A model generated the notes under the pieces. The model searched no databases. It was not told the origin of the DNA and worked only from the letters and a program-made list of their open reading frames with translations. Positions 13,263-36,046 of a DNA stretch of 64,000 nucleotides are shown in pieces. Positions within the stretch are counted from its first letter, which is position 1; every line of letters starts with the position of its first letter. A program made the translations under genes and the position numbers. The stretch comes from an uncultured Pseudomonadales bacterium (GTDB lineage Bacteria > Patescibacteriota > Microgenomatia > UBA1400 > PJMF01), in contig CAZWWE010000001.1 of assembly GCA_964637295.1 (NCBI GenBank), positions 20,327-84,326 of the forward strand. Reading direction: 5' to 3'.

Positions 13263-13631
13263 ATGTTATTAAAAGAAAACTACTCCTTTATTCATTTTCC
13301 AGTTACCAACAAAAATCCTGAAGAAATACTTTCTCTTTATTCTGAAGAATTCGCAATCAATAAACCAGAAACAATAACTCAGATAAAAACGATATTTGCT
13401 AATGCACTTCGAGATTATTTATCAGGAAAAATTGGAGAGTGGGAGCTAGGATCTCTTGCCTTTTCTTTGTCAGCTGATAAACAATTATCCTCCATAGTTA
13501 AACAAGATCAAAAACTTAGTAAGATTATTTTTGAATGTGTTGATATCAAATGGTTATCTGAAGGAAAAAATTTTGATCAATATAAAAAAGAATTACAAAA
13601 TTTCTTAAATTCTATTACTAGTAATAAATAA
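13263..13631 (+). CDS. hypothetical protein; possible immunity/partner protein of the preceding orphan gene
   Basis: 122-aa ORF with no recognisable motif. Confidence 0.45.
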   Translation: MLLKENYSFIHFPVTNKNPEEILSLYSEEFAINKPETITQIKTIFANALRDYLSGKIGEWELGSLAFSLSADKQLSSIVKQDQKLSKIIFECVDIKWLSEGKNFDQYKKELQNFLNSITSNK

Positions 13632-13699
13632 GTAAAGCTTTTTTATACTGTCCCATTCGTCCCATTTCAAGATATAATTCTTGTTATAAAAGTTACATT

Positions 13700-13737
13700 T
13701 ATAACGACGCACGGGTTCCAGACCCATCTGCTCCGCA
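13700..13737 (+). repeat. repeat C copy 1: tRNA-3'-end-like element ending gctccgca
   Basis: tataacgacgcacgggttccagacccatctgctccgca. Recurs at 15058. Immediately followed by repeat A. Confidence 0.7.
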
Positions 13738-13835
13738 ACGATCGAAAAGTTCTGACAGACCCGTCTAATACCGCTAAATGGGTTGATGGTGCTTGCTAAT
13801 TTTCCTTAGTTAGAACATTTTTCGCTTTAACAGCC
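13738..13835 (+). repeat. repeat A copy 3
   Basis: acgatcgaaaagttctgacagacccgtctaataccgctaaatgggttgatggtgcttgctaa...ttagaacattttt..aacagcc. Confidence 0.85.
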
Positions 13836-13873
13836 GGTGTAACAAATTAAACCGAGAGTTGTAATCATCTCAA

Positions 13874-14856
13874 ATGAGACTACCAAAGAATTGCGTTTCT
13901 TTATTAGAAAAAGCTCGAGACTCAGCAACGCAAGCAATTTCTAAATATAATGACCCAAGAAGCATATTTAGAACGGGGAACTTCTCGGTTCTCATGATTA
14001 TAGCTTGGACAGCATTGCTTCATGCCTATTTTGAAAAAAATAAAACTAAGTACTTTTACAAAAAGAATCAATACAGATATCAAATAATTGATGGCGAAAA
14101 AAAGCTTGGGATTTGCAAAAGTGCTTGAATGAAATTTTTGATGAAAATAATCCCATACGTAAAAATATCGAGCTCTTCATAAGGTTAAGAAATAAGATTG
14201 AGCATAGAAATTTACCCGGTCTTGATCCTGAACTTGTCGGTGAATCACAGGCACTTGTTTTAAACTTTGAAGAATGGATAGCTCAAGAATTTGGTGAGAA
14301 ATATTCATTATTGGAAACTATTTTTGTTCCAATTCAATTAACTTCTGCTCAGAGATCTCTTCCAAAAACTAAAATTGAAGAAAATGTTCTCAAGTTCATT
14401 CAAACTTATAGGAATGTTCTTGAGACAAATGTCATAAATTCGCTAAAGTACACTTTCAAAGCTTATCTCGTTCCCAAGATTGGTAACCACAGAACCTCAT
14501 CAGATATGGCTATTGAATTTGTAAAATATGATGAAAGCAATCCTGAGGAGATAGAAAAATACAACAAGGCTATTGTTGCAATAAAAGAAAAAGTTATTCC
14601 TGTTGCAAACCTGAATCACTACAAACCAACTCAGGTGTTAGAGAAATTGGTAGAACGTGATTTTAGCAAAAACCAACACTGGCACGTGACTATGTGGAAA
14701 AAGTATAAGGTCGGGCCAGAACCAAATGCGATTAATAAATCAAACTGCAAATCAGAATACTGTATTTATGATAGCGCTCATTCTGATTATTTATACACTG
14801 ATGCTTGGATAGACATGCTCATTGCAGATCTTCAAGGAAAAATGAATCTCTTGTAA
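13874..14856 (+). pseudogene. HEPN-containing Abi_2 (AbiD/AbiF)-like abortive-infection gene, frameshifted at an A7 homopolymer
   Basis: Two overlapping ORFs (13874-14128 frame 2; 14113-14856 frame 1) join at gaaaaaaag (~14095). The downstream part carries an Rx4H HEPN motif (LRNKIEHRN). Combined length ~325 aa fits Abi_2. Confidence 0.45.
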
Positions 14857-15057
14857 AGAGAAAGAATTATTTATCCTGGAAATATAATAACTAATGATTG
14901 CGCAAAACAAAACACTCCTTTTTTATAAGGTCACATTTGTCTCATTTTTTCTCCGTTAGCCTGGTGATACAATTGATCATTGACGCGACTTTCTAGGTCT
15001 CATTTGTCCCGTTTTTGCTAAAATTACTCTAGAAGCCAGATTTTGGGAATGGGACAG

Positions 15058-15096
15058 CTATAACGACGCACGGGTTCCAGACTAGGATGCTCCGCA
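15058..15096 (+). repeat. repeat C copy 2
   Basis: ctataacgacgcacgggttccagactaggatgctccgca. Confidence 0.7.
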
Positions 15097-15135
15097 ACAA
15101 TCGAAAAGTTCTGATAAACCCGTCTAATATCGTTA
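15097..15135 (+). repeat. repeat A copy 4 (5' part only, truncated)
   Basis: caacaatcgaaaagttctgataaacccgtctaatatcg, then unrelated sequence. Confidence 0.7.
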
Positions 15136-15239
15136 AAAGTTTGATTTATTAGTTTTCATATAGAAATTTGATAAATGGTGAATAATAAAGTATCTAAAAA
15201 CTATATGTCTGTGTTATTATAACTAAGAAAAATATATCT

Positions 15240-16211
15240 ATGAAAACATTTGTTGTTATACCCACTATTAGAAATCTCGATATTCTGAAAAGTTGGGCAG
15301 AGGAGCTGGCTGCATGCCACCTTATTGTTATCGAAGATCATGATAATAAGGAGATTAGAATTCCAGAAGTTAAGTGTTTGAGTATTCAGCATTATTCCAG
15401 AATCGATATCAAAAAAGAATTTGGAAATGATTCTTGGATCTTTCCTCAACAATCTTCAGCTATTAGATCGTTTGGATTTTGGAAAGCATACTCACAAAAA
15501 GCTGATCTTATTGTTACTTTCGACGACGATTGCGCTCCAAAAACACTTGATTTTATTAGAAAACATCAAGAAAATATTGCGTCAACATTTTCACACTCAT
15601 GGATACCAACGTATCCCTATCGAAAGTATTTGTTCACGAGAGGATTTCCTTACACGAATAGAAAAGAAATGCCGACAAAACTTAGTCACGGACTCTGGAC
15701 CAATGTTCCTGACCTTGATGGTATGACACAAATCATGAAATTTGATAAACCTGTAACAAATCTACCAGACGTTTTATACCAATTTCCTAGAAGTATGTAT
15801 TTTCCAATGAGCGTAATGAATCTTGCCTTCACGAGCGACGTTGCGGTATTACTTTATCAATTATTAATGGGCTATAGTATAAAAGATGGTAAATACTGGG
15901 GCTACGAAAGATTTGATGATATTTGGTCAGGTATCTTTATGAAAAAGGTGTTTGATCATTTAGAATTTGCTGCCGTCAGTGGCTCTCCCTATGTTTATCA
16001 TTCTAGAGCTTCAAGCATGTTTGCAAATTTACAAAAAGAAGCACGAGGCATTGAGCTAAACGAAACTCTCTGGAAAGAAGTAGACGCTATTAAGCTTAAA
16101 TCAAATACTCCTAAAGAGTGTTACATTGAAATTGCTAAAAAAATGAGTAAAATAAATCCATATTTTAAAACCACTACCAAAGCAATGCAGATATGGGCAG
16201 AACTATTTTAA
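15240..16211 (+). CDS. RGP (reversibly glycosylated polypeptide) / GT75-family glycosyltransferase
   Basis: The N-terminus VVIPTIRNLDILKSW...HLIVIEDHD...TFDDDC closely parallels the RGP/UDP-arabinopyranose-mutase family signature (IVIPTIRNLDFLEMW...HLIIVQDGD...DDDC) as I recall it. Confidence 0.65.
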   Translation: MKTFVVIPTIRNLDILKSWAEELAACHLIVIEDHDNKEIRIPEVKCLSIQHYSRIDIKKEFGNDSWIFPQQSSAIRSFGFWKAYSQKADLIVTFDDDCAPKTLDFIRKHQENIASTFSHSWIPTYPYRKYLFTRGFPYTNRKEMPTKLSHGLWTNVPDLDGMTQIMKFDKPVTNLPDVLYQFPRSMYFPMSVMNLAFTSDVAVLLYQLLMGYSIKDGKYWGYERFDDIWSGIFMKKVFDHLEFAAVSGSPYVYHSRASSMFANLQKEARGIELNETLWKEVDAIKLKSNTPKECYIEIAKKMSKINPYFKTTTKAMQIWAELF

Positions 16212-16874
16212 AAATTTAGTTGAAAATGTGATAGATTGATATTGATACATTTGCTATTTGATTGTTTTGGCTTAAAAAAAATATCAGTTCTTCTTTTGTT
16301 TGCTAATAGCTTAATATTTGTCATATAAAACATGTGAAACTAACATTTGCTGTTTTTCCAGCTAAAAGAAGCGCTGTTTTTTACGGCAGCAAGTCTTAAA
16401 AAATAATCAAATATAATTCCAATTTCTTTTCGTCCTCACAAATGTCGCAATATGGAAACCAACCCACTTGTACTAATAAAGATCTGTCGCCTTAGAAAGG
16501 CTTCATTAGTTTGAGTAAAGAAAGAATCTATCCAATCCTAAAAAAGTATTGTGCAAAGTTAAAACTAGCTTTACCTGCTACGTCTACGATTAGAAAAAAA
16601 TAATTACTAAGAATCATCTTTCCTTTTCCAAAGCTAACTACTGATAGCACAATCCAAATAGAAAACAACTAGATCTGAGCAAGAGATCTAGAGTCAAGTA
16701 CGCTCCAAAACCAGAGATTGGCGGTCATGTTGAATTAGATACAATTGAAATTAGAATCACCAATGTTAAACGCTATAACAGAAATAGCCATTGATATCAA
16801 ATTAAAAATTGCCTATGCTCAAACTTTCAAAATTTATTTTTTGATGCACTTCAAATTAATACAAATGCGAAAGT

Positions 16875-18962
16875 TTAAGCAACCTCAGTTCTTGATGCAG
16901 GATGGTGACAATTGATACATATACTTTTTGAAAAAATATACCATGGTCTTTCATCTTTGGGTGATTTTTGTTTATTTAATATCAATCTTTTAGTTTTTTT
17001 TAAAACCATTGTCAACAAGTATTTGTACATTTGATATCGATAAAAGTCACCAGTAAAATGCATGAATACTACAGGTGTTATCGATTTTCCCAATAGTTTA
17101 TGTTCGGGAAAAACTTGATATCTATTTTTATCTAAACGAAAACTAGGAATAATTTCTGCTATCAATACGTGAAGCGATTGTTCAATAATAGGAAACACTA
17201 ATTTTAATTCTATGTTAGCATGATGATCATAATCACGTCTTTGTTCGTTTAATTGCAGTATTAATTTAATAAAATCATCAATTTTTTTTACTGAAATATG
17301 TCTATGAAAAAGTGGTAAAGAAAACATTAGTAATCCTGAGTTGAGATGCTCAACTGTATGAGGCCGTTTTAATATGAAATCTGTTTCGGGAAAAGAAATA
17401 ACTGAAAAATTAGCGTAATCAGATAAAAAACCCATTTTGTTAGATTTGTTTTTTAGCCATTCTAAAATTTCTGTTGGTTTTTCAACAAAAAGCGTATCAC
17501 TATCAATTAATATTGACTTCCCGTTTTTTTCAAAAAAGAGAGGAATAAAAAACTTTTTACCTGACCAACCATAATTAAAAAATGCTTTTGCATAAGAAAA
17601 ATTTTTAATTTCTGGCAAGATCTTATCTTCAACTTCTCTTATTTTAAGTATTGAAATTCTAACCCTCTTAGTAAAGAGTTTTTCTATTATAAATTTATTG
17701 AAATGATTAAGACTAAAATCAAAATATAAATAATAGCGCAATCCTGGGATGAAATGGTTCAAGCTCAACATTGAAAAAATCGATATAAAAAAGTCTCTTT
17801 TTGAGATCACATAATATATTTTTGCCTCAGAAAATGAACTTGGTTTAGAAAGATAACTTTTTTCAAAAATTATCTGTAATAAAATTGCAAACTCACTGAT
17901 TATTCTTGCAATAAAAAGAAAAACGGAGAATCTCACAACAAAAAAGGTTGCAACTATTTTTGATTTATAAAACAGTTTCTTTAATTGATAAAAATCTGCT
18001 TGAATAAAATTCTTTTTTATTTGTAGTTTATAAAATATACTGAGTATATTTATCAAAAAAAGTGAATTATGTTTCAGTGGATATTTCGCTCTGTTTTTAC
18101 CAATACTATCAGCAAGTTTCAAATTATTTAACCATTTGTCGTAGTAAATAGACTCAGGATTGTTCCAAGGTTTGTCAATTTTCTCAGAACTAGCAAAGTG
18201 AAGTACTGGAGCTTTGCTTGAGACTATTCGTTTTTGAGAATCACTACTAGTTAAATTATAACAATAATTAAAAAGCATCGGAAGTTTTTGCCACTTCTTG
18301 GTAAAAACTAAATTAAATGCACCTTGCATTCCGTAGGCAGAAATTTGAGCAAACCGAGCCGAAGTATTAATTAACCTTTTGTGTAAAGATAAATTGATAA
18401 TATCTGTTGATAAAGCAAATACTCCAGCATTAAACGCAGTTTGATTCAAGTCATATTCAATCTTAAGCTCTTTCAATAATTGAAGACTAGAGGACATATC
18501 CAACTGAAGATTCTTTCTGAGAGTCGATCTTTTAATTCCAGAAATTATTTCAGTGCGAGATAAAAATTGATTTTCAAGTTTAGGGAATGCAATATCGGAA
18601 ACAGCAGCAAAACCCTTAACTTTAGTAAGATAATCTAAGCTGCCTTGAATAATAATGTCACTTTCTATAAAAACGACTTGTTTCCATTTCTTAAAATAAG
18701 GAGTGAAAACATCAAAAGCATTAAGGTAAACTGACGGAAACCACTTTGTACTAGGATGATCGCGATGCTGGAGCTGTTTAACTATTATGTTGTGAGACCT
18801 AAACCATTTTAACTCCTCCTTAGGTGCTTTGTTAACAATAAACAGGAAGTCTCCGTCCCAACCGCCAAAGTGATATGCGCTCGAAAAAAGTTGTTTTACC
18901 TGAGAAAGGTAATTACCGTCACCCATAGTAACTAGCAATTTATCTTTGGCAACATTAGGCAT
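16875..18962 (-). CDS. two-domain GT8-family (LgtC/glycogenin-like) glycosyltransferase
   Basis: 695 aa, very AT-rich. The N-half has ...IESDIII... plus NAGVFAL. The C-half has a second GT8-like ...LIDSDTLFV... plus HLNSGLLMF (DxD + NSG motifs twice). Confidence 0.6.
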   Translation of the reverse strand: MPNVAKDKLLVTMGDGNYLSQVKQLFSSAYHFGGWDGDFLFIVNKAPKEELKWFRSHNIIVKQLQHRDHPSTKWFPSVYLNAFDVFTPYFKKWKQVVFIESDIIIQGSLDYLTKVKGFAAVSDIAFPKLENQFLSRTEIISGIKRSTLRKNLQLDMSSSLQLLKELKIEYDLNQTAFNAGVFALSTDIINLSLHKRLINTSARFAQISAYGMQGAFNLVFTKKWQKLPMLFNYCYNLTSSDSQKRIVSSKAPVLHFASSEKIDKPWNNPESIYYDKWLNNLKLADSIGKNRAKYPLKHNSLFLINILSIFYKLQIKKNFIQADFYQLKKLFYKSKIVATFFVVRFSVFLFIARIISEFAILLQIIFEKSYLSKPSSFSEAKIYYVISKRDFFISIFSMLSLNHFIPGLRYYLYFDFSLNHFNKFIIEKLFTKRVRISILKIREVEDKILPEIKNFSYAKAFFNYGWSGKKFFIPLFFEKNGKSILIDSDTLFVEKPTEILEWLKNKSNKMGFLSDYANFSVISFPETDFILKRPHTVEHLNSGLLMFSLPLFHRHISVKKIDDFIKLILQLNEQRRDYDHHANIELKLVFPIIEQSLHVLIAEIIPSFRLDKNRYQVFPEHKLLGKSITPVVFMHFTGDFYRYQMYKYLLTMVLKKTKRLILNKQKSPKDERPWYIFSKSICINCHHPASRTEVA

Positions 18963-19425
18963 AAATTATTTTTCTCAAAATTTTTACAATGAAGACCTAT
19001 CTATAAATTAAACATTTTCAAGTTACCATATTCTTGACGAAGTATAACATATAAAGCGATGATCAATGATCATATCATGAAACAAGTATTTTAATCTAAT
19101 TCAACATATAATAAACAACGCATAATTGAACTACTTTTAACTACTGTGTTATAAAGTTCCAATTTTTAGTGATATGTAATATAATTTAGCGACGGTTTAC
19201 CAGAAAGAATTTCTTCACCTGAAGTTGGCAGGGTAATCGAAAATTTAGAAGTCGAAACCGTTGCAAAAGTTTTAAACCAACAGCTTGCAAATGAACCCAC
19301 AAGTATTCACTGCCAAAAAAATGTACTTTGCGATTGGCGCATCGCTGCTATAGACATCATCACCGCTTATTATCAACATTTAAGAACAAAGCTCACTAAC
19401 TAAAAATTAAATGTTATATTAATTT

Positions 19426-20385
19426 GTGCATAAAAACTCAGTTCTATCAACCGAAGCTAGCAATTTTCTCAAAGGTTTAGCGATCCTTTTAGTCATATTG
19501 GTGCACACCCTCTCTAGTTTTCAAGAATCAGTGTTTGTCGGTTTTCATGGACGCTTTCAAACTTTAGCCGTTTTGATCGATAAAATCTGTCGATTTTCAG
19601 TGCCTTTATTCGTGGCTCTTTCTGGTTACGGTCTCAGTCAAAGATACTTCCAAAAACCACTCCATTTTGGCGAATTTTTGCGTCATCGACTATGGAAGCT
19701 AATCCCCAAATATTTACTCTGGTCTGCAATTATGATTTTGGCCGTCAAAATCATTCCTGCTTGGCACTCGGATCGCCCTAGTCCGCCTTTATCATTACTT
19801 TTGCTTTTGGGCTATGCTGACTATCATTTATATTTTGTGCCGATGATTTTGCAACTTTATTTATTATTTCCCATCTTGCGCTTTTTTTATGGAAGATGGC
19901 CCAATTTAACTTTATTTTTAGCTTTATTAATTCAAATTATGTGGTTTGCCAGCTTTAGTTATCAACAAAAATTACCTTTTAATTGGTCGATTTTTGCGGC
20001 TGATCACGAGCAATATCTGTGGGCCAGTAATTGGATTTTTTATTTTGTTTTGGGCATGGCTCTGCCAAGAATTTTAATTTGGCTCAGACAAAAAACCTTT
20101 GTTTGGAATTTAATTCTAATAACCTGCCTACTAATTGGCTGGCTCGCTTTAAGCATCAATGCGATTGCTCGTATTCAGATGGGCATTGATCCTTTATTAG
20201 TTTTGCGTTTTACTCAGTACAGCATGATTGCTTGGGTAAGTTTAGGCATTATTAGCTTGAGTTTTTTTGCCAGTCAATTAAAAACTGTGCCCAAAATCAT
20301 GCTTTGGCTTGGTCAAAAATCTTATGATCTCTATCTAAGTCACACCCTTTTACTTCGCCTCGTTTTTAGCTTCTTTGTTTGGTAA
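19426..20385 (+). CDS. acyltransferase-3 family membrane O-acyltransferase
   Basis: About 10 TM helices. N-terminal LKGLAILLVILVHT pattern typical of the Acyl_transf_3 (OatA/OafA-like) family. Confidence 0.7.
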   Translation: MHKNSVLSTEASNFLKGLAILLVILVHTLSSFQESVFVGFHGRFQTLAVLIDKICRFSVPLFVALSGYGLSQRYFQKPLHFGEFLRHRLWKLIPKYLLWSAIMILAVKIIPAWHSDRPSPPLSLLLLLGYADYHLYFVPMILQLYLLFPILRFFYGRWPNLTLFLALLIQIMWFASFSYQQKLPFNWSIFAADHEQYLWASNWIFYFVLGMALPRILIWLRQKTFVWNLILITCLLIGWLALSINAIARIQMGIDPLLVLRFTQYSMIAWVSLGIISLSFFASQLKTVPKIMLWLGQKSYDLYLSHTLLLRLVFSFFVW

Positions 20386-20434
20386 AATACAAATTGTTTC
20401 AAGACTAGTTTCACTTGGTAGTCTTTAAAAAAAT

Positions 20435-21265
20435 ATGAGAAAAAAAATTAAATTAGTGGCCTTGTTTTTATTACTTTTAGTTTTTGGTGTTGCCGGGTTT
20501 TTATATAGCAAAAAAAAGCCCTCCAAGCAAACACCGAATGACCAAGCTGTGCCTAATCAAGTCGCACAAAAAAAAACAGAATCAACTTATTTAATTGACG
20601 GCTTTCCACTAGAAGAAATTCCTTTGTATCAGCTCAACAAAATCAGTTCAAGCAAAATTTTCATCAATACTGATCCAAAAAACACTTCTGTTTTCGACGA
20701 AAGTAATTTTGCTTATTACAATGTCGTCTTTGATTCAAATGCTAGTCAAGAAGAATTGCTTAATTACTATCGCGGCTTAATGACTCAAAAATTGGAGGAG
20801 GGCTCTAGTCAAGAAACAGTAAGAGGCTCTATCGGAGCCTATAAGGTGTCAATTAGCCATTACGGAGATCAAACTGCTTATTTACAAGTGCATTTACCCG
20901 ATTATCAAGATGCTCGCTTGACTCAATATTTTACTGAATTTCCCAAGATTTTTGAGGTAAATGAAACTCTGCTTAGTGAAGCTGAAAAATCTTATGGACT
21001 GCTCAATCAAAAAGGTGGAGAACTTGAATTTACTAAATATTTTACTGTAATTGACAGTGGTGATCAAAATCAAGACGGGCAAGACGATGTGGACGAGTTT
21101 GCTCTGTTGCTCAAAGAAGCTCAAGAAAAAAATCAAGCTAAAACCAATTACACTTTTGATGAAAAAACTGCTACTATGCAGTGGTCAGAACAAAACTTTA
21201 ATATTACCCTGGCTTTTGCCAAAAATCATCAGCGCCTCTACCTAATGCTACGTCAAAATATCTAG
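20435..21265 (+). CDS. hypothetical membrane-anchored extracellular protein
   Basis: N-terminal TM/signal anchor (LVALFLLLLVFGVAGFL), then a hydrophilic domain. No recognisable motif. Confidence 0.45.
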   Translation: MRKKIKLVALFLLLLVFGVAGFLYSKKKPSKQTPNDQAVPNQVAQKKTESTYLIDGFPLEEIPLYQLNKISSSKIFINTDPKNTSVFDESNFAYYNVVFDSNASQEELLNYYRGLMTQKLEEGSSQETVRGSIGAYKVSISHYGDQTAYLQVHLPDYQDARLTQYFTEFPKIFEVNETLLSEAEKSYGLLNQKGGELEFTKYFTVIDSGDQNQDGQDDVDEFALLLKEAQEKNQAKTNYTFDEKTATMQWSEQNFNITLAFAKNHQRLYLMLRQNI

Positions 21266-21482
21266 AAAGACCAAAAACAATGATAGAAATAGGTGGAAAA
21301 AAACCAACATTGGAACAAGCCACGAAGGAAGAAATTATTGCTGCTTATCAACAACTTTGTGCCGGTGATAAGAGCAACAACAAAGCAATTGAAATACTCA
21401 TTGAGAGGTTTGGAGAAGAAGCGGTTATTGAAGTCATGCCCAAGATCTTTAAATAGATGAAGAGTTAAAAAAAATTTGATTA

Positions 21483-21567
21483 GGAGAGATCGCATAGTGG
21501 CCGAGTGCAGCGGTTTACTAAACCGCCATAGCGCAAGCTATCCAGGGTTCGAATCCCTGTCTCTCCG
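21483..21567 (+). tRNA. type II (Ser-class) tRNA with apparent anticodon ACU
   Basis: Acceptor ggagaga/tctctcc, discriminator G. 3-bp D stem. Anticodon stem gcggt/accgc with loop ttACTaa. Long variable arm. T arm caggg-ttcgaat-ccctg. Confidence 0.65.
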
Positions 21568-21871
21568 CAAAGATCTGAAGCTTAATAAAACCGATAGCAC
21601 TTGTTAAAAGTAAAGTGTTTCTCATTCTTTCGCTAAACTTACTTCCTCAAGAATAACATCGTCTATCTCAATAGTTTCTTTTGTGAAATCGCGAATCTCT
21701 TTAGATAAAGATATTTTAAAAACAAAATTATTTAAAGTAGCCAAGTTAGATAAAACTTCTCCAGTGATAGTGAAAATGCCTACAATCGTTGACGAAACAA
21801 AAATACTTGTTGCTGAAAAGTATGGTAAAAATATTTCTCCAATTCTCCTGTGTATATCTGCTCTCTACAAA

Positions 21872-22957
21872 CTAGCCCTCTCGATTTTTGACAAAACTAA
21901 ACAAATCTAGCAATAATTTTTTTGCCTCCAAGTTAAGACTTGTTTGATCAAGCAGACTCATAAAATTTACTTCATATTGCTCAATCATCTGAGTAATTTT
22001 TTGGACAATCTTTAGATCACGCAGGGCTTTTTGCGTGGCTTCAATTTGTTTTTGGCTCAGTTTAGTTTGGCCAAAATATTGGAGCACCTGTCGATAAGCT
22101 TGATTTTTATTTTGGCGCAAAGCTTGGGTTAAAAAATAAAGATGAAAAGTTTTTTTATTTTCAATAATGTCGTTGCCTAAATTTTTACCCGTGATTTTAG
22201 GGTCGCCAAATAAGCTTAATTGATCATCAGTGATTTGAAAAACCATACCTAAGGCTTCAGAGGCTTGGTCTAACAAAATCAAATCTTTTTCTGGCAAATC
22301 AGCTAATAAGGCGGCTAAAATAATTGGCACCGTAAAGGTGTAGCGGGCAGTTTTATATTGATAAATGGTTTTAATGGCTTTTAAGTTTACGCGACTTTGC
22401 TTTTTACCTAGAAGCACTTCTTCCCACTGTGCGAAGCCGAGATGACTATATTCTTGCGACAATAAATTGAAAATGGCTTGTCGTTTTTGATCAACTGATT
22501 TGGCAATTTCACCAAAAGCAATAAAAAAACACACATCGGTGGCACATAATAAAGCACTGGTAGCATAGTGCTTTGGATTTTTAATCTGTTGCAAACGCGC
22601 CAAGCGCAATCTTTGACTAAAGAAAGTAATCATGCCGCGTCTTTGACTATCCTGATCCATATAATCGTCTTGAATTAATAAACTGCTGTGAATCAGTTCT
22701 AGAGCCGCAGCAATCGGCAAATATTGCTTCATTTTGCTTTTCAGATCAGGCTTCACGACACTTAGAAATTCCAAGAAAAGCCCACCGCGCACGGTTTTAC
22801 CAGCAATTAAAAACTGATCCAAGTAATCAAAAGTTGCTTTAGCCACGGAATGCTGATTATAAATTTCTCTTTGTTCATTAATTAATTGCTTGATATATAG
22901 ATCTATTTGCTTTTTTCTCTTTTCAAGAAAAATTAATTGTTTTTTTGCCATAAACAC
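21872..22957 (-). CDS. polyprenyl diphosphate synthase (GGPP/FPP synthase family, CrtE/IspA-like)
   Basis: First Asp-rich motif LLIQDDYMDQD. Second motif GMVFQITDDQLSLFGD, matching the GxxFQxxDDxxD consensus. Confidence 0.7.
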   Translation of the reverse strand: MFMAKKQLIFLEKRKKQIDLYIKQLINEQREIYNQHSVAKATFDYLDQFLIAGKTVRGGLFLEFLSVVKPDLKSKMKQYLPIAAALELIHSSLLIQDDYMDQDSQRRGMITFFSQRLRLARLQQIKNPKHYATSALLCATDVCFFIAFGEIAKSVDQKRQAIFNLLSQEYSHLGFAQWEEVLLGKKQSRVNLKAIKTIYQYKTARYTFTVPIILAALLADLPEKDLILLDQASEALGMVFQITDDQLSLFGDPKITGKNLGNDIIENKKTFHLYFLTQALRQNKNQAYRQVLQYFGQTKLSQKQIEATQKALRDLKIVQKITQMIEQYEVNFMSLLDQTSLNLEAKKLLLDLFSFVKNREG

Positions 22958-23606
22958 TTTTTAAAATTAATAAATAAAACATCATTCCATAAATAAAATC
23001 TTCCAGTGGAATGGTCAAAATCATTAAGCCACTTTTATAAATTGGATTATAAGTCACAATTGGCAAAGCTGTTAAATAATAATTAAAAATTAAAGTCATG
23101 AAAACAGTAAACAGCAAAGCCAAAAATTCTGCTTTGCTTAAATTCAATAAATCTTTTAGCAAGATCAACATCAGCAACAACATACTAGCGGAGTACCACC
23201 ACGATTGACTCAAGGCAAATAACAATAAAATTGCTAAAACTAGATACAAAATAAATAAGCACAAGTGATTTTTACTTTGCCAAGCTTTTTGGCTCAAATT
23301 TTGCCAATTTAATAAAGGCAAATTTTCCAAAAAAGTTAATAAACCAAAAGGCACAGTGATAAAAAACAAAATTTCTTCGATGGGCAGTTTAAAAATTTTT
23401 GGCAAAGGCAAAACATAAAAATCATTAAAAAACCACCAATGATTGCTAACCAAAGCATCATTGAGCACAAAAAGCAAAGTTACTGGCAAAATTTTGGGTA
23501 AAAGCTTGATTGGCAAAGTCATTTTTCTATAAAAAAGTTTGGCTACTAAAATTGAGCCCAAAACTAAAATATGAAAGAATAAATAAGAAAAATTGTTGAA
23601 TTGCAT
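22923..23606 (-). CDS. lycopene cyclase domain protein (fused CrtYcd-type)
   Basis: Multi-TM protein with two PxEE-type motifs (LPIEEILFFITVPF and TIPLEDFIYGMMF), diagnostic of the heterodimeric-type carotenoid cyclase domain. Confidence 0.55.
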   Translation of the reverse strand: MQFNNFSYLFFHILVLGSILVAKLFYRKMTLPIKLLPKILPVTLLFVLNDALVSNHWWFFNDFYVLPLPKIFKLPIEEILFFITVPFGLLTFLENLPLLNWQNLSQKAWQSKNHLCLFILYLVLAILLLFALSQSWWYSASMLLLMLILLKDLLNLSKAEFLALLFTVFMTLIFNYYLTALPIVTYNPIYKSGLMILTIPLEDFIYGMMFYLLILKSVYGKKTINFS

Positions 23607-23610
23607 ATTT

Positions 23611-24468
23611 CTAATACCTTAAACATAAAAAAACATTTTTAAGTAGAGTCAAGAAAACGATCAATTTCGAAGGCTTAATTTTTTGTTCAAAAACCTTTAG
23701 CGGTTGCTTGGCAATGCGTCTTGCTGTCCACTGATATAAATCAGCGGTGGTTTTGATAGGCACTAAACTTAAATAAGGAATATAAGCATAACCTCGCTCT
23801 GCAAATTTTTGTTTAGCCTGATAAAGTTTAATTTCAAAACGAATCAAAGCAATGATTTTTTTTCGCTCTGTCTCATCACCAAGATTGAGTGAGCAAAAAT
23901 TTTTTAATTGAAATTTTTGCAAATCAGACACAGGCAAATACTGTCTTTGTAATTCGCAGTCTTCTTTGAGATCACGAATAAAATTGATGTGTTGCATCGC
24001 TGCTCCCAAAGCACGAGCGTAAACGAAAGCTTGTTCATTTAGCTCTAAAATTTTTGCCATCATCAACCCAATAGTTTCAGCGCTGCCATGGACATATTTA
24101 GCGAGCTCTGCTTCATTTTGATAAATCAGCCATTGCTTGGGTTTTTGTAAATCACTGGACATGGAATGAAAAAAAGCCTCAACCCAAGCAAGATCAAAGT
24201 TTTTAACTTTGGCTAATTTAACGAAACGCTGAATATATAAATTATGATCGTTGGCGATCATTTTTTTGCCTTGAAAACAGGCGCGAGTGTTATTAATAAA
24301 AAGGGTTAAGTTTTTTCGATCCTGAGGTATTTGATCCACAAAATTATCAGCAATTCTCACAAAAGCGTATAAATCTCTAACTTGTTGGAAAATCTTTTTC
24401 TGAAAAAACAAACTACTGTAATAATAGGTTGTGCTAGAATTTTTAAATACTTCTTGACTCTCGTTCAT
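23611..24468 (-). CDS. phytoene / dehydrosqualene synthase (CrtB/CrtM family)
   Basis: YAFVRIADNFVD corresponds to the first YAFCRxxDDxxD motif, with a D->N change. MQHINFIRDLKEDCELQRQYLP corresponds to the second motif (RDxxED...GRxYLP). Confidence 0.7.
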   Translation of the reverse strand: MNESQEVFKNSSTTYYYSSLFFQKKIFQQVRDLYAFVRIADNFVDQIPQDRKNLTLFINNTRACFQGKKMIANDHNLYIQRFVKLAKVKNFDLAWVEAFFHSMSSDLQKPKQWLIYQNEAELAKYVHGSAETIGLMMAKILELNEQAFVYARALGAAMQHINFIRDLKEDCELQRQYLPVSDLQKFQLKNFCSLNLGDETERKKIIALIRFEIKLYQAKQKFAERGYAYIPYLSLVPIKTTADLYQWTARRIAKQPLKVFEQKIKPSKLIVFLTLLKNVFLCLRY

Positions 24469-25958
24469 GTTGACGATTCATTGGTAATTAAATCTGCGAC
24501 GTATTTGGCAGATAAAAGCACCATTGGCACTCCCACACCGGGTTGGGTAAATTGCCCAGTATAGTATAAACCGCGCAAATGCTTGGATTTCATATTGGGC
24601 CGCAAAAAAACGCTCTGACTTAAACGATGACTGAGACCCAAAGCATTCCCCCCGTAAGCAAAATAGTCCTTCGCGAAATCATTTTGCGCATAAATTTTTT
24701 GATAGATAATATTCTGTATAAATTTTTCACCAATTTTATTCTCCACATGAACTAAGGTTCTGGCCACATAGGCTTCCAGGTCTTGGGTAGTGGTTTTAAT
24801 GCTCACCGGCACTAGTAAAAATAAATTCTCTTGATTTGCCGGAGCGATACTGGGATCAGTGATTGAGGGAGCAGACAGGTAAAAATTGGGTTCCTCTGGC
24901 CAATGACTGCTTTTTTGAATGGTGGTGAAGTGCTGATTCCAGTTTTTTTGAAAATAAAAATTATGATGTCTCAAGCGGGTTAACTTTTTACTTATTCCTA
25001 GATAAACTAAAACGCAGGCAATCGAAAAATCCTTTTGCTGCCAATATTTTGCTGGATATTGCTGTTGATCGCTCGTTAATAAATTTAATTCCGTAAAAGG
25101 ATAATCAGCACTGGAAACAACGATATCGGCTGCGAGATGTAGTTTTTGCTTTTGGTAAAGATAATCTATACCATCGACTTTTTTTGTTTGCAATGTGCTA
25201 GTGATTTTTTGCACGGTCGCTTCTTTGATGATTTTGACCCCATGTTGCAAACAAATTTGTTCCAGAGCTTCAACTAATTTAATCATGCCGCCCATGGGAT
25301 ACCAAATTTTTTCTCGAAAATCAGCACTAATCAAAATGCTGTAGAGCGCCGGTGTAGAAAATGGTTCACCACCCAAAAAAACTGTTTGAAATTCAAAAAT
25401 TTTTTGCAAAAAAGGATCTGACACGTATTTTTTAACTAAGCGATGATAGTTTTGCAGAGGATTAAAAATTGAACAAATTTTTAAAAAATTAACCAGCAAG
25501 GAAAAATTAAAAAAATCACTGATTTTTAAATACGGTTGATCAAGAAAATGATTAACTGCTAAATCATAAACTTGATCAGTTTTACGAAGTAATTGACGAA
25601 TTTTTAGACTACTGCCTGGAGCAAGTTTTTCAAAAATCGCTAAATTCTGTTGCAAATCAGACACAAAGTCAACTGGCGCCACATCATCAACAAACACTCG
25701 ATATTTGTTTTTTAACTCTTGCAGAGTAAAAAATTTTTTAGTACTCGTGCCCAATGCTTGAAAAATGCTTTCAATCACTTCTGGCATCATGTACCAAGAA
25801 GGACCCATGTCAAAAAGAAAGCCCTTGTCTTTTAGCGCTCTAGCTCGCCCGCCCAAAGTAGCATTTTTTTCCAACAAAGTAACTTGGTGACCTTTTTTGG
25901 CCAAAAAAGCGCTTGTTGCCAAACCACTTAATCCTCCACCGATCACGGCAATTTCCAT
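24465..25958 (-). CDS. phytoene (or diapophytoene) desaturase, CrtI/CrtN family
   Basis: N-terminal FAD fold MEIAVIGGGLSGLATSAFLAKKGHQVTLLEKNATLGGRA. Length ~500 aa. Translationally coupled to the synthase. Confidence 0.75.
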   Translation of the reverse strand: MEIAVIGGGLSGLATSAFLAKKGHQVTLLEKNATLGGRARALKDKGFLFDMGPSWYMMPEVIESIFQALGTSTKKFFTLQELKNKYRVFVDDVAPVDFVSDLQQNLAIFEKLAPGSSLKIRQLLRKTDQVYDLAVNHFLDQPYLKISDFFNFSLLVNFLKICSIFNPLQNYHRLVKKYVSDPFLQKIFEFQTVFLGGEPFSTPALYSILISADFREKIWYPMGGMIKLVEALEQICLQHGVKIIKEATVQKITSTLQTKKVDGIDYLYQKQKLHLAADIVVSSADYPFTELNLLTSDQQQYPAKYWQQKDFSIACVLVYLGISKKLTRLRHHNFYFQKNWNQHFTTIQKSSHWPEEPNFYLSAPSITDPSIAPANQENLFLLVPVSIKTTTQDLEAYVARTLVHVENKIGEKFIQNIIYQKIYAQNDFAKDYFAYGGNALGLSHRLSQSVFLRPNMKSKHLRGLYYTGQFTQPGVGVPMVLLSAKYVADLITNESST

Positions 25959-26002
25959 AGCTATATGATAACAAAATCTTTACATTTCTGCCTCTCTGAT
26001 CC

Positions 26003-26725
26003 ATGATTAATCGATCTATGTCTTCACCATTCACTAGCTTACAACACAAGTTGCTTCAAAACGCTGATTCAAAAACTCAAGAATCTGGTCAAAGATTTTT
26101 TAAAGAAAAAATCAAAATATATGGCGTCAAAACCGCTACTGTGGGAAAAATTGGTAAAGAAATTTTTAAAGAAATTAAAGACGAAAATAAAAAAGTTGTT
26201 TTTGATTTCTGTGAAGAGCTTTGGCAATCAGGCTATATGGAAGAAACCTTTATCGCTTGTAACTGGTCATATAATGTCTGGAAACAATATGAAAAGGATG
26301 ATTTTGCAATTTTTGAAAGATGGATCAATCAATACATTAATAACTGGGCATCTTGTGATACTTTTTGTAACCACACTATGGGCAAATTTATCGAATTATT
26401 TCCGGAATATATTAATAAACTAAAAAAATGGACTCAGTCAAAAAATCGCTGGGTCAAAAGAGCTAGCGCCGTCTCCCTTATTATTCCTGCGAGAAACGGC
26501 CAATTCTTAAAAGATATTTTTGAAATTGCTGATAGTTTATTATTAGACCCAGACGATATGGTACAAAAAGGCTATGGCTGGTTGCTTAAAGTAGCTAGTC
26601 AAGCTCATCAACAAGAAGTTTTTGCTTACGTCATGAAGAATAAAACAGTAATGCCACGAACCGCTTTGCGTTATGCCATCGAAAAAATGCCAACCAAACT
26701 AAAGAAAAAAGCTATGGCTAAGTAA
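26003..26725 (+). CDS. DNA alkylation repair enzyme-like (HEAT-repeat AlkD/AlkC family)
   Basis: All-helical ~240-aa protein. Pattern resembles the pfam DNA_alkylation family. Moderate confidence by eye. Confidence 0.45.
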   Translation: MINRSMSSPFTSLQHKLLQNADSKTQESGQRFFKEKIKIYGVKTATVGKIGKEIFKEIKDENKKVVFDFCEELWQSGYMEETFIACNWSYNVWKQYEKDDFAIFERWINQYINNWASCDTFCNHTMGKFIELFPEYINKLKKWTQSKNRWVKRASAVSLIIPARNGQFLKDIFEIADSLLLDPDDMVQKGYGWLLKVASQAHQQEVFAYVMKNKTVMPRTALRYAIEKMPTKLKKKAMAK

Positions 26726-29108: not shown

Positions 29109-30230
29109 TTATTTATTTGCAATGATTTTTTCCCAACTAAATTCTGCTCTGCCAAAATGGCCATAAGCGGCAGTTTGAGCAAAAACTGGCTGGCGCAAAG
29201 CCAGCTGATTAATGATGTTTTGCACTGACATATCTAGTAAGCCCAAGGCATATTTTTTAATTTCCTGATCACTGACTTTGCCAGTTCCAAAAGTTTCTAT
29301 ATTAAGAGAAACTGGTTTGGCTTGACCGATGACATAAGCCACTTGCAATTCACAGCGCCTGGCTAAACCCTGAGCAACAATGTTTTTGGCCAAAAATCGA
29401 CAAGCATAAGCTGCGCTACGATCAACTTTGCTAGGATCTTTACCAGAAAAACAGCCACCGCCATGACGACCCATGCCACCATAAGTATCAATGATAATTT
29501 TGCGACCAGTAAGACCGGTGTCAGAAGCTGGTCCGCCAATTTCCCAAGCTCCAGTCCCATTGATAATTAACTTAATTTTATTTTGATCCAAGATTTGCTT
29601 TGGGAAATATTTTTTCACTGCAGGAACAATCACTTTGCTCCACAAATCTTGTTCTAACTGGTCTTTACTAATTTGCGGATCATAAGGTACGGCCATAATA
29701 ATCGTCGAGACTTGATCAGGTTTACCATCTAAATAATCAATCACTACCTGAGCCTTGCCATCCGGCCTCAAATAGGAAATCACTAAATTTTCGCGAGCCT
29801 GATCCAGATTAAACATTAATTGGTGAGCCAACATAATCGGCATTGGCATCAACTCGGGTGTTTCATCGCAAGCATAGCCAAACATCATGCCCTGATCACC
29901 AGCGCCGCCCCCATCTACGCCCATGGCAATATCCTGAGATTGCTGATGAATGTAAACTTCAATGTCTGCTTGGTCAGAAAAGCCCCAAGCAGGATTGGTG
30001 TAGCCGAGCTTTTTAATCGTTTGACGGGCGATTTTTTCATAGTCGATTTTGCCAGCACTAGTCACCTCACCAGCTAAAATCACTTTATTGGTGGTCACTA
30101 AAGTTTCCATTGCCACTCGACTATGAGGATCAATTTTCAAACAAGCATCAACGATGCCATCGGAAATTTGATCGCAAATTTTATCAGGATGACCTGCAGC
30201 CACTGATTCTGAAGTAAATTGTTCGAACAT
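29109..30230 (-). CDS. metK: S-adenosylmethionine synthetase
   Basis: N-terminal FTSESVAAGHPDKICDQISD. GGGAFSGKD-like motif. Full-length MAT. Confidence 0.9.
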   Translation of the reverse strand: MFEQFTSESVAAGHPDKICDQISDGIVDACLKIDPHSRVAMETLVTTNKVILAGEVTSAGKIDYEKIARQTIKKLGYTNPAWGFSDQADIEVYIHQQSQDIAMGVDGGGAGDQGMMFGYACDETPELMPMPIMLAHQLMFNLDQARENLVISYLRPDGKAQVVIDYLDGKPDQVSTIIMAVPYDPQISKDQLEQDLWSKVIVPAVKKYFPKQILDQNKIKLIINGTGAWEIGGPASDTGLTGRKIIIDTYGGMGRHGGGCFSGKDPSKVDRSAAYACRFLAKNIVAQGLARRCELQVAYVIGQAKPVSLNIETFGTGKVSDQEIKKYALGLLDMSVQNIINQLALRQPVFAQTAAYGHFGRAEFSWEKIIANK

Positions 30231-32532: not shown

Positions 32533-32615
32533 GGAGGTGTCGCATAGTGGTCAATTGCACACGCTTGGAAAGCGTGAGCCGCAAGGCTTCGCAGGTTCGA
32601 TTCCTGTCACCTCCG
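32533..32615 (+). tRNA. tRNA-Ser (anticodon GGA), type II
   Basis: Acceptor ggaggtg/cacctcc, discriminator G. 3-bp D stem. Anticodon stem cacgc/gcgtg with loop ttGGAaa. Variable hairpin. T arm with ttcgatt loop. Confidence 0.8.
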
Positions 32616-32715
32616 CAATAATTGAAAAGTTCTGATAGACCCGTCTAATATCGCTGAATGAGTTGATGGGGCTTGCTAAATTTCCTTGATTTAAACATTT
32701 TTTGGTTTAACAGCC
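32616..32715 (+). repeat. repeat A copy 5, directly after tRNA-Ser(GGA)
   Basis: caataattgaaaagttctgatagacccgtctaatatcgctgaatgagttgatggggcttgctaaatttccttgatttaaacattttttggtttaacagcc. Confidence 0.85.
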
Positions 32716-34435: not shown

Positions 34436-36046
34436 TCAATTGGTCAATTGTGCCGGATCGCTGGCGGCTCGAACTTCCAATTTGTATCCACCAAATTGGT
34501 TTACATCGACAACAACTGAAAAGTCATTCTGTCTTTTGATAAATTGTTGATAAATATCACCCAACACTAGCACTTCGGGTTCTTCGATAAAAAAATGCAA
34601 TTTTTCAATCGAATTTTTTTGTGTTAAGATTTCTGCACCAAACTTTCCCAACTGGCTACTCCCAAAATAACTTGGTTTATAGCCATATTTTTTGAAGCCA
34701 TGCCAATTATATAAATAGGCCCAAGTGATGTAATATTCATAAGGTGCAGTCCAAACAGAAATAGAAAAAGGTTGACCTTGAGCAAGTGCGTAAGTTTTCT
34801 CAATTAATTCTAATTCTCTGGCCAAAGTTACTCCAGTTTGATAAGTAAAAATATTAGTATTCTGCACTCTCATTAACTTAAGAGCTTTAATTTGCGTCCA
34901 TACGTACATGCTTAACAAGCAAATTAGTAATAAACGTCCAAAAAAGACTTTTTGACTAAAAAGAGTATGAAGCAAAAAAGCAAATAACAATAAAATTAAA
35001 TATTCCATACCCATTAACATGTGAGGACTATCGCGAAATTGAATTACAAATAACCACAAAGGCGCCAGCGCCCAACTTAAGAAAAAATATTTAACCGCTT
35101 GACTTGGCTGATGTTTCAAGCAAATCAATAAAGTTAATAGAAAAATAAAAAGCGCATATAAAGTCATTTGCGGAGCTAGAGTTTGAATAATTTTTTGTAA
35201 ATAAAAATCCAAAAAATCACTAAGCACTGTCAAATCTACTAGTTCTTTGCTTTGACCGATTGCCTTGAAAAAAGTTTCTAAACTGAAAATTCCAACTCTA
35301 AATAATTTATACTGCGTTAACAACATGGTGAAAATCGTTGCTAAAAAACTTAATAAAAAAGCAGCCATTTGTTTAAGATTAAATAGCTGATAAAAAGCTA
35401 GCTTTTTTTGATTAGTTAAATAAAACACAGCCACTAAAATCACTCCAATAAAATACAGGGCGTAAAAAGCACTTTGTTCAATCAAGCCCAGAGAAACGCC
35501 CAAGATCATGAATAAATATAAAGATTGGCTTTTTTGATATTGGTAAAATATTTTCCAAATCAGCAAAAAGAAAACCAGAAGCGGTAGTAGGCCCATCATC
35601 GGATTGGATAACCAAGTTGAATACTGGGCATGTTCGAAATTAAGCGCTAATAAAAAAGCGCCTAACAAAGCCATGGTCTTATTTTTAAAAATAGCATTGA
35701 TTAAAAAATAAAGCAGAAAAACTGCTGCAGAATTAATAAGCGCCATAATTATCGTTACTAGAAATGGATCACCAGCAAAAACAGTGTAAAAGAAACCAAT
35801 GAAATAATAATAAAAAACTCCATGATAAATAGTGTCATTGGTACCACTGGCCGAAGGGCCCTGAATTTTTAAGTCGCGCTCTAAATAAATTTGCTGAGCT
35901 AAATAAGCATCTCTGGCCTGATCATACCAGAAGTAAATATGTTGATCGGCGATTAACCAGTAACGAAAAGCGAAGGCGAGTAAAAAAATGACCAGCAAAA
36001 TTAGACGAGGATTTTTTAATTTTGAAGAAAATTTTGACTTGAACAT
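34436..36046 (-). CDS. GT-C fold membrane glycosyltransferase (ArnT/PMT-like), paralog 1
   Basis: About 11 TM helices plus a C-terminal soluble domain. First-loop motif FWYDQARDAY...IQGPSASG, paralogous to the 36124 gene. Confidence 0.55.
   Translation of the reverse strand: MFKSKFSSKLKNPRLILLVIFLLAFAFRYWLIADQHIYFWYDQARDAYLAQQIYLERDLKIQGPSASGTNDTIYHGVFYYYFIGFFYTVFAGDPFLVTIIMALINSAAVFLLYFLINAIFKNKTMALLGAFLLALNFEHAQYSTWLSNPMMGLLPLLVFFLLIWKIFYQYQKSQSLYLFMILGVSLGLIEQSAFYALYFIGVILVAVFYLTNQKKLAFYQLFNLKQMAAFLLSFLATIFTMLLTQYKLFRVGIFSLETFFKAIGQSKELVDLTVLSDFLDFYLQKIIQTLAPQMTLYALFIFLLTLLICLKHQPSQAVKYFFLSWALAPLWLFVIQFRDSPHMLMGMEYLILLLFAFLLHTLFSQKVFFGRLLLICLLSMYVWTQIKALKLMRVQNTNIFTYQTGVTLARELELIEKTYALAQGQPFSISVWTAPYEYYITWAYLYNWHGFKKYGYKPSYFGSSQLGKFGAEILTQKNSIEKLHFFIEEPEVLVLGDIYQQFIKRQNDFSVVVDVNQFGGYKLEVRAASDPAQLTN

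Follow-up and report, generated by a model that had tools for sequence, protein, structure and literature searches.

CPR bacteria are usually pictured as metabolically minimal and dependent on a host for lipids. Carotenoid genes have nevertheless already been published in Patescibacteria (PMC9948471, PMC11484240), including bacterioruberin-type clusters (crtD/crtI-lyeJ-cruF) that are also known from haloarchaea and Arthrobacter (PMC9948471; PMC11946383). The closest described system to the locus analysed here is the heterodimeric-type lycopene beta-cyclase pathway of actinobacteria and haloarchaea (crtE-crtB-crtI-crtYc/crtYd, or with fused CrtY), which matches it in its four enzyme families and in a predicted product of beta-carotene. 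A more distant comparison is the Staphylococcus CrtM/CrtN C30 pathway, whose head-to-head synthase shares a fold and aligned DxxxD motifs with the synthase described below. In the whole 64-kb stretch of DNA that we analysed (the window), a four-gene operon of a CPR bacterium probably encodes a functional, self-contained route to a cyclic C40 carotene. It differs from the actinobacterial and haloarchaeal pathway in its gene order (crtI-crtB-crtY-ids), in its CPR host and in that all of its proteins score below the curated equivalog cutoffs. Where bacterioruberin-type clusters have an elongase and a hydratase it has a cyclase, and it is therefore expected to yield a cyclic C40 carotene and not an acyclic C50 product.

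A preliminary description of this DNA had proposed a complete, compact four-gene carotenoid cluster at 21872-25958. The cluster is real: four intact, tightly packed minus-strand ORFs with significant family matches encode, in order, CrtI, CrtB, a fused CrtYc/Yd-type cyclase and a polyprenyl diphosphate synthase. The features of the locus are as follows.

21483-21568, plus strand: tRNA-Ser(ACU), found by ARAGORN and Rfam; bounds the variable slot on the left and is conserved
21569-21871, no strand: 303-bp spacer from the tRNA to the ids stop codon, with no nucleotide homology in relatives and only a weak 75-aa ORF
21872-22951, minus strand: ids, trans-polyprenyl diphosphate synthase, predicted to make GGPP; 359 aa with the ATG start
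22923-23606, minus strand: crtY, CrtYc/Yd-type lycopene cyclase of two fused domains; 227 aa, about six transmembrane segments
23611-24468, minus strand: crtB, phytoene-synthase-like head-to-head prenyl synthase (SQS_PSY); 285 aa, PF00494 match
24465-25958, minus strand: crtI-family carotene desaturase, first gene of the operon; 497 aa, N-terminal FAD fold VIGGGLSGLA
25959-26002, no strand: 44-bp divergent intergenic region from the crtI start to the alkD start, the presumed promoter region
26003-26725, plus strand: alkD, for DNA alkylation repair; bounds the slot on the right and is conserved; PF08713, 215 bits

The genes had been called overlapping, which holds for crtI/crtB (4 nt) and crtY/ids (29 nt), but crtB and crtY are separated by a 4-nt gap. 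An alternative GTG start at 22957 would extend ids to 361 aa (21872-22957); the ATG start is the one called in an independent assembly. Promoter and terminator signals for the operon did not rise above chance.

The desaturase belongs to the CrtI family (TIGR02734, 416 bits over residues 4-495, cutoff 238.1; PF01593 is also assigned) and has its GxGxxG motif at residues 7-12. Its best-scoring model is the bifunctional CrtI/CrtD equivalog NF058655 (CrtID; 517 bits, below the cutoff of 640), which places it nearer to the haloarchaeal bifunctional model than to classical CrtI and in the same broad clade as the desaturases of bacterioruberin-type clusters. Haloarchaeal matches reach 35% identity, and among solved structures it matches CrtI (4dgk, 164 bits) and CrtD (4rep, 161 bits). 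Haloarchaeal bifunctional members carry out phytoene desaturation (PMC11946383), and CrtI requires O2 or quinone as electron acceptor (PMC3382138). The cyclase is of the CrtYc/Yd type, matching TIGR03462 in two stretches (53.9 bits, cutoff 39.4) and PF18916 in two domains. Each half carries one motif, PIEE at residues 75-78 and PLED at residues 200-203, and both are conserved in 22 homologues; the preliminary description had the cyclase type and the first motif right, whereas the second of its two PxEE motifs is in fact PxED. Haloarchaeal CrtY is likewise a fusion of a pair of lycopene-cyclase domains that carry PxE(E/D) motifs, as in the ~227-aa membrane protein of the window.

The synthase falls within the PF00494 superfamily (132 bits against 26) but scores only 53-64 bits with CrtB equivalog models whose cutoffs are 480-550. 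Its Mg-binding DxxxD motifs, DNFVD at residues 41-45 and DLKED at 166-170, align with DDSID and DVGED of CrtM, the first of them with CrtM D48-D52. The sequence ADNFVD is present at residues 40-45 as first described, and the accompanying worry that its asparagine might impair Mg2+ binding is unfounded: DxxxD is intact, both aspartates are invariant among 68 homologues, and the asparagine is a natural variant of the x position (D, E and N in 29, 26 and 13 homologues, respectively). The prenyl synthase matches PF00348 (130 bits against 27) and falls below the GGPP-type equivalogs CrtE (58 against 460), GGPP_syn (72 against 500) and IdsB (77 against 475). Of the two Asp-rich motifs claimed for it, the first stands as DDYMD; the second is DDQLS, which lacks the third aspartate and is not DDxxD. 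Its best PDB match, of modest similarity, is the Corynebacterium glutamicum GGPP synthase 3lk5 (72.5 bits, E = 4.3e-19, residues 63-347), which likewise shows small residues ahead of its first Asp-rich motif and, in DDLLG, a second motif without the third aspartate. Ser/Leu at positions -5/-4 relative to DDYMD, in place of the Phe-Phe of human FPP synthase, would permit a product of C20 or longer.

From the gene families, motifs, synteny and distribution observed, we infer chain lengths, a final product and a physiological role for the operon. The prenyl synthase would convert IPP and DMAPP to GGPP (C20), and the CrtB-like synthase would join two GGPP to phytoene. A single CrtI-type FAD desaturase would then take phytoene to lycopene, possibly with an extra 3,4-desaturation, and the fused membrane cyclase would form a ring at one end or at both, for a product of gamma- or beta-carotene, or of torulene if five desaturations occur. 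Because the CrtB, CrtE and CrtID models all score under their NCBIfam equivalog cutoffs, these substrate and product assignments depend on a small number of residues and on context. Genes of the IPP/DMAPP pathway were found neither in the 64-kb window nor beside related clusters. The pigment would most likely be a membrane component that protects against light, acts as an antioxidant or stiffens the membrane, in a habitat exposed to oxygen and light; we count as a link to light the photolyase gene that is adjacent in 11 related loci. An intact pathway of this kind suggests that some CPR lineages invest in membrane isoprenoids of their own, probably as a provision for living in light and oxygen.

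Whether the pathway is C30 or C40 had been judged impossible to tell by eye, yet the question can be answered from the sequence, and the answer points to C40. A CrtM/CrtN-type diapocarotenoid pathway from FPP could be argued from the best-scoring solved structures of the synthase, 5iys (deposited as 'Phytoene synthase') and S. aureus CrtM, from the breadth of TIGR02734, which spans the wider CrtI family, and from matches of the prenyl synthase to FPP-synthase models. In the alignment to CrtM and 5iys, however, Ser19 and Arg31 of the synthase replace the CrtM gates Phe26 and Trp38. Substitution of Phe26 by Ala, Ser or Leu makes C40 phytoene possible in CrtM, and these steric barriers are absent from PSY (PMC13304436, PMC4510654). 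Of the CrtM entries, the best match is itself the F26A mutant chain 3ae0, and 5iys has Phe at this gate, whereas all 68 homologues of the window's synthase have Ser or Thr. The synthase shows the combination expected of CrtB, two DxxxD motifs with small residues at the Phe26 and Trp38 positions. These replaced gates, a prenyl synthase without aromatic stops at -4/-5 whose best match is a GGPP synthase, and the presence of a lycopene cyclase together favour C40 over C30 and set the operon apart from the Staphylococcus pathway, making a C30 product highly improbable. Lycopene cyclases are not known to act in C30 pathways. A squalene/hopanoid-type (HpnC/D/E) or other non-carotenoid system is more improbable still, to the point of being almost negligible. 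The top NCBIfam matches of the synthase, HpnD (93 bits) and HpnC (78 bits), do score slightly above the CrtB models, but lie far below their cutoffs of 278.6 and 250.45, and the oxidase that scores 416 bits with the crtI_fam model reaches 41 bits with HpnE (cutoff 283), over the N-terminal FAD fold. All three Hpn assignments thus fall short; the Hpn route requires two SQS_PSY genes where the operon has one, and a lycopene cyclase is present where a squalene-hopene cyclase is absent.

The cyclic C40 assignment also has to be weighed against a CrtYe/Yf-like cyclase that makes a cyclic C50 carotenoid with a lycopene elongase encoded elsewhere. A related CPR locus (L007) has a UbiA-type elongase and a cyclase together, crtYf is annotated in a published Saccharimonas MAG (PMC11484240), and in 38 related loci a UbiA prenyltransferase adjoins crtI. 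This reading is nonetheless very unlikely: the window contains no UbiA-family ORF, members of the window's own clade (L003-L005, L174) carry this four-gene set without an elongase, and 20 of 21 loci with a cyclase called beside crtI lack an adjacent one. Another proposal is that the pathway mainly supplies beta-carotene for retinal and rhodopsin, of the bacterium or of its host. Rhodopsins and heliorhodopsins do occur in some CPR, Saccharibacteria that bear rhodopsins have no retinal synthesis (PMC9296517, PMC9166423), and the product of a beta-cyclase would suit as precursor. The retinal-precursor idea of the preliminary description finds no local support, however, as rhodopsin and blh/brp-like dioxygenase genes are absent from the 64-kb window, and neither rhodopsin nor blh turned up in the surroundings (+/-10 kb) of 80 related clusters, where 47 multi-TM ORFs were examined; most CPR rhodopsins in the literature come from Saccharimonadia and not the window's lineage (PMC9166423), and we regard a mainly retinal-directed role as quite unlikely. 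A broader scenario, speculative and unlikely, would make the CPR episymbiont an autonomous beta-carotene producer with a portable four-gene 'sunscreen/membrane' cassette exchanged among CPR, DPANN, Asgard and haloarchaea, which could donate provitamin A or a retinal precursor to rhodopsin-bearing partners or, alternatively, supply a lipid-ordering molecule. If true, such donation would reverse the host-to-symbiont direction proposed for Saccharibacteria, and the lipid-ordering alternative would serve cells unable to make their own fatty acids.

The markers support the CPR host raised as a possibility at the outset and identify it as a Microgenomates/Woesebacteria-like member of the Patescibacteria. 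In the ribosomal operon, S5 (55050-55679) and L15 (54600-55046) lie 3 nt apart and uL30 is missing, a protein reportedly often absent in CPR (PMC9297842). Named relatives of SecY are Woesebacteria (78%) and Patescibacteria/Pacebacteria (62-65%), and one relative with conserved synteny, GCA_018817305.1, is catalogued at NCBI as a 'Patescibacteria group bacterium' MAG. Several related MAGs are titled 'Pseudomonadales' or 'Gammaproteobacteria', which might suggest a binning or assembly artefact that joined a crt cluster from a non-CPR organism to this genome. Such an artefact has hardly any probability: the cluster shares one contiguous sequence with the CPR-type ribosomal operon, it agrees with the host in composition and codon usage, the cluster with its alkD-crtI junction was found again in an independent Logan assembly (L001), and one 'Pseudomonadales' protein (P0154) is called Woesebacteria in nr.

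For a CPR bacterium, this operon is ordinary and not exceptional. The preliminary description overstated its case in calling the cluster unexpected, since some 70 GTDB species genomes, Patescibacteria for the most part, share the crtI-crtB core, in addition to the prior literature. Patescibacteria clusters come in two flavours, a cyclase type and a LyeJ/CruF bacterioruberin type, across dozens of species genomes, and with the operon a cyclase-type (beta-carotene-like) variant joins the bacterioruberin-type genes reported in this group. Among related loci of CPR and archaea, the UbiA elongase lies beside crtI-crtB in 38 and CruF in 17. The understanding of carotenoid biosynthesis is unchanged by it, and its practical value is modest, although at 4.1 kb the compact operon is open to direct testing in E. 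coli.

The new detail is the position of the cassette in a variable slot between tRNA-Ser(ACU) and alkD. On the tRNA side, nucleotide identity to relatives is 96-97% and stops at the tRNA 3' end; on the other, alkD retains 79-82% amino acid identity and its downstream synteny. Four syntenic loci of close relatives (L169-L172, of which L172 seems to be an assembly that overlaps L171) retain tRNA-Ser(ACU) and alkD-NUDIX-...-metK but lack the crt genes, and their slot is empty or holds other cargo. No integrase ORF or att-like repeats were found at the cassette, which does not qualify as a tRNA-targeted genomic island, and the cassette shows no foreign composition; loss of the crt genes in the relatives is for these reasons an alternative to gain in the window's bacterium. 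CrtI identity falls from 100% to 63%, and SecY has dozens of relatives at 79-89%. The same four-gene order recurs in other genomic contexts (L003, L005 and L174), and the four genes appear to behave as a portable cassette, an accessory and mobile module at a tRNA-adjacent slot.

Four ORFs arranged head-to-tail on the minus strand make up the carotenoid operon, at the positions first reported, and all four proteins score well above the Pfam and NCBIfam cutoffs for their families. An independent Logan assembly recovers the cluster and also the point where it joins alkD, the gene next to it. The operon is real and intact and, as judged from sequence, probably functional for a cyclic C40 carotene in a CPR (Patescibacteria) genome.

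Genes of the carotenoid operon (ORF calls)
24465-25958, minus strand: crtI, desaturase
23611-24468, minus strand: crtB, SQS_PSY synthase
22923-23606, minus strand: lycopene-cyclase-domain protein
21872-22957, minus strand: polyprenyl synthase; ATG at 22951, called in the independent assembly, is the likelier start

The preliminary description had all four genes overlapping, which holds for crtI and crtB (4 nt) and for the cyclase and prenyl synthase genes (29 nt), whereas crtB and the cyclase gene are separated by a 4-nt gap. Of the two Asp-rich motifs noted in the prenyl synthase, the second is corrected here to DDQLS, and the motifs described as two PxEE in the cyclase are PIEE and PLED. A promoter and terminator scan of 21300-26300 returned signal counts at or below the shuffled expectation.

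Whether the pathway is C30 or C40 had been considered impossible to tell by eye, and three independent grounds now favour C40. In Staphylococcus aureus CrtM, the steric gates Phe26, Trp38 and Phe233 restrict the enzyme to C15 substrates, the substitutions F26A/S/L allow phytoene (C40) to be made, and such barriers are absent from PSY (PMC13304436, PMC4510654). Alignment places Ser19 and Arg31 of the window synthase at the Phe26 and Trp38 positions, the F26A mutant 3ae0 is its top-scoring CrtM chain, and the Phe26 position is Ser or Thr in every synthase homologue collected (68/68). Among solved structures, the prenyl synthase is closest to the Corynebacterium glutamicum GGPP synthase 3lk5, with which it shares an unusual second motif lacking the third Asp, and it carries Ser/Leu at −5/−4 before DDYMD where human FPP synthase has Phe-Phe. 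Finally, the operon itself encodes a lycopene cyclase of two domains, in which the PxEE/PxED motifs are conserved. Because of these gate residues, the GGPP-synthase-like prenyl synthase and the cyclase, the predicted chain length is C40. Of the NCBI models, that for the bifunctional CrtI/CrtD of haloarchaea fits the desaturase best, at 517 bits and so short of its cutoff of 640; members of that family desaturate phytoene (PMC11946383). The pathway would run from GGPP through phytoene and lycopene to gamma- or beta-carotene, and a fifth desaturation, if any, would give torulene; we found no accompanying hydroxylase, ketolase, glycosyltransferase or elongase in the window. Since none of the four operon proteins reaches an NCBIfam equivalog cutoff, we infer both chain lengths and product.

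An Asn in the synthase motif ADNFVD had raised concern about Mg2+ binding. In the alignment with CrtM, D48-D-S-I-D52 corresponds to DNFVD and DVGED to DLKED. Both Asp residues of DxxxD are invariant across the 68 homologues, and the Asn sits at the variable second position (Asp in 29, Glu in 26, Asn in 13). On this comparison the Asn belongs to the normal variation of the motif and does not damage it, and the concern falls away.

A host outside CPR would have refuted the preliminary description, and that objection falls: the host is a CPR bacterium and probably belongs within Microgenomates. The S10-spc-alpha ribosomal operon occupies 48-63.5 kb of the window on the same strand, and S5 and L15 are spaced by 3 nt with uL30 absent between them; uL30 is described as often missing in CPR (PMC9297842). 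Named SecY relatives are from Woesebacteria (78% identity), the ‘Patescibacteria group’ (63-65%) and Pacebacteria (62%), and an NCBI MAG titled ‘Patescibacteria group bacterium’ (GCA_018817305.1) is a syntenic relative with flanking proteins 76-87% identical. In the ribosomal operon of the window (52665-53228) and of loci L083-L088, infA comes directly after adk, the map gene being absent, and uL30 is missing between S5 and L15. Several loci from the CrtI scan, including L003, L004 and L005, carry ‘Pseudomonadales’ or ‘Gammaproteobacteria bacterium’ titles; for the CrtI homologue P0154 (isolate HK-STAS-PATE-16), from one such MAG, nr gives the name ‘Candidatus Woesebacteria bacterium’. It looks as if CPR MAGs had been given wrong taxon names in the public records.

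The operon lies in a slot between tRNA-Ser(ACU) (21483-21568, plus strand) and alkD (26003-26725, plus strand), a setting that is a new detail. A trial of metK as a synteny probe of metagenome contigs was abandoned, the patterns having matched universally conserved motifs (best match 60%), and we traced the slot by alkD protein search and contig look-ups instead. Four syntenic loci of close relatives (L169-L172) retain tRNA-Ser(ACU) at 96-97% nucleotide identity and alkD-NUDIX-264 aa-(EamA-HSP20)-metK-RRM-GGDEF-tRNA-Ser(GGA) at 76-96% amino-acid identity, and crt genes occur in none of the four. L171 and L172 come from sibling samples and have identical gene content, so the four loci amount in effect to three independent relatives.

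Content of the slot, with position of tRNA-Ser(ACU) in each relative
Window: four-gene cassette
L169 (9134-9219): about 780 bp, no called gene
L170 (7562-7647): 215-aa ORF and Band_7 gene
L171 (9297-9382): 122-aa ORF
L172 (2117-2202): 122-aa ORF

Nucleotide homology to the relatives ends at the tRNA 3′ end (21569-21571) and restarts within alkD at about 26057. The identical four-gene order appears in unrelated contexts (L003, L005 and L174), the nearest CrtI (63%) adjoins a Znu transporter, and CrtI identity drops from 100% to 63% whereas dozens of SecY relatives stand at 79-89%. Slot variability, the other contexts and this identity gap together characterise the operon as a cassette that is accessory and transferable. 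Loss of the cassette in the relatives, as opposed to gain here, keeps a small residual likelihood. Neither an integrase nor att-like direct repeats were found around the cassette, and we do not call it a classical genomic island. Foreign composition as a sign of recent transfer was likewise rejected: GC3 and codon usage of the four genes fall within 1 s.d. of 40 host genes, and the hydrophobic amino-acid content of the cyclase accounts for the low overall GC of its gene. Given host-like composition without integrase or att repeats, transfer of the cassette was either old or from a compositionally similar CPR donor.

A CrtI scan with one genome per GTDB species yielded 80 loci, mostly from Patescibacteria (Roizman-, Dojka-, Levyi-, Woese-, Doudna-, Nomura- and Vogelbacteria, Paceibacteria and Saccharibacteria), with an archaeal minority (Halovenus, Salinibaculum, Promethearchaeota, Hodarchaeota, Woesearchaeota and Bathyarchaeota).

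Genes beside crtI (cluster counts take in the window wherever one of its genes is a member)
crtB: 67/80 loci (68 with window)
Prenyl synthase: 50/80 loci (51 with window)
Cyclase: 21/80 loci (22 with window)
UbiA prenyltransferase (LyeJ-like): 38 loci
CruF: 17 loci
Photolyase: 11 loci

By these neighbour counts, CPR carotenoid clusters come in two flavours, one with a cyclase, to which the window belongs, and one resembling bacterioruberin clusters. This second flavour has already been reported in Lake Baikal Patescibacteria (PMC9948471), and a Saccharimonas MAG has been noted to carry crtB, crtE and crtYf (PMC11484240). The view that such a pathway is unexpected in CPR was therefore overstated, and a carotenoid operon is not very unusual there. 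Our literature search found no paper on a cyclase-type four-gene operon in Microgenomates, and a paper search on sample accessions SRR9878565, SRR9860464, ERZ724085 and SRR36368357 returned nothing. In a descriptive neighbour-joining tree of CrtI without support values, the window groups with L003-L005, all of cyclase type. Archaeal sequences fall in among CPR elongase-type clades of this tree, a pattern suggesting that CPR and archaea have exchanged carotenoid genes. Asgard loci (L050 and L062; Hodarchaeota/Promethearchaeota) carry crtY-crtI-cruF and a second crtB-crtI pair; the observation on Asgard loci and archaeal CrtI sequences also takes in L032, L034, L063, L079 and L082. Nine CrtI homologues at 39-44% identity (P0181, P0193, P0197, P0205, P0208, P0233, P0236, P0240 and P0254) combine PF01593 and PF00494 in single proteins of 756-838 aa and appear to be natural CrtI-CrtB fusions.

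The pigment most likely protects against light, acts as an antioxidant or orders the membrane, in habitats that are oxic and lit. As electron acceptor CrtI requires O2, or quinones when O2 is absent (PMC3382138), photolyase genes often stand next to the cluster, and many source MAGs, by their titles, appear to come from lakes, rivers or surface waters. The proposed link to retinal and rhodopsin found no support: a transmembrane screen of window ORFs and Pfam searches of nearly all those of at least 110 aa revealed no rhodopsin, heliorhodopsin or Blh in the 64 kb. In related loci, inspection of candidate 5-7-TM neighbours and a Pfam batch of 47 multi-TM ORFs gave no rhodopsin, heliorhodopsin or Blh among the 25 of 39 families listed, a weak single match being possible; the candidates were transporters and similar proteins. 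The 64 kb also hold no MEP or mevalonate genes. A photolyase (about 454 aa, PF00875) is the immediate neighbour of the carotenoid genes in 11 of the related loci (L014, L020, L039, L040, L041, L047, L048, L065, L069, L072 and L076). The window has no photolyase, and its cassette is flanked by alkD, NUDIX and HSP20 genes.

The tRNA-Ser beside the slot is class II, with a 7-nt anticodon loop (TT-ACT-AA) that gives the anticodon ACU, which is unusual, since bacteria seldom have A34. This tRNA coexists with tRNA-Ser(GCU) (6870-6955) and tRNA-Ser(GGA) (32533-32616), and the commonest Ser codon in window genes is AGT (274 versus 156 AGC). A SAM riboswitch (RF00162; 30498-30615, minus strand; 45.1 bits, just over the gathering score) precedes metK (29109-30230, minus strand). 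Relative to L170 and L171, about 6900-21300 is a large variable region, and in these loci other genes connect tRNA-Ser(ACU) with the conserved 572-aa gene. Part of the region is low in GC (28.6% at 16-18 kb) and has genes for glycosylation: a ‘reversibly glycosylated polypeptide’ family protein (15240-16211; PF03214, 193 bits), a 695-aa GT8 protein (16875-18962) and a DUF3644 protein. Three large proteins encoded side by side, each with 8-9 TM segments, match no Pfam family (34436-36046, minus; 36124-37704, plus; 37711-39456, plus); the L169 homologue of the first, 53% identical, is a PMT_2-type glycosyltransferase.
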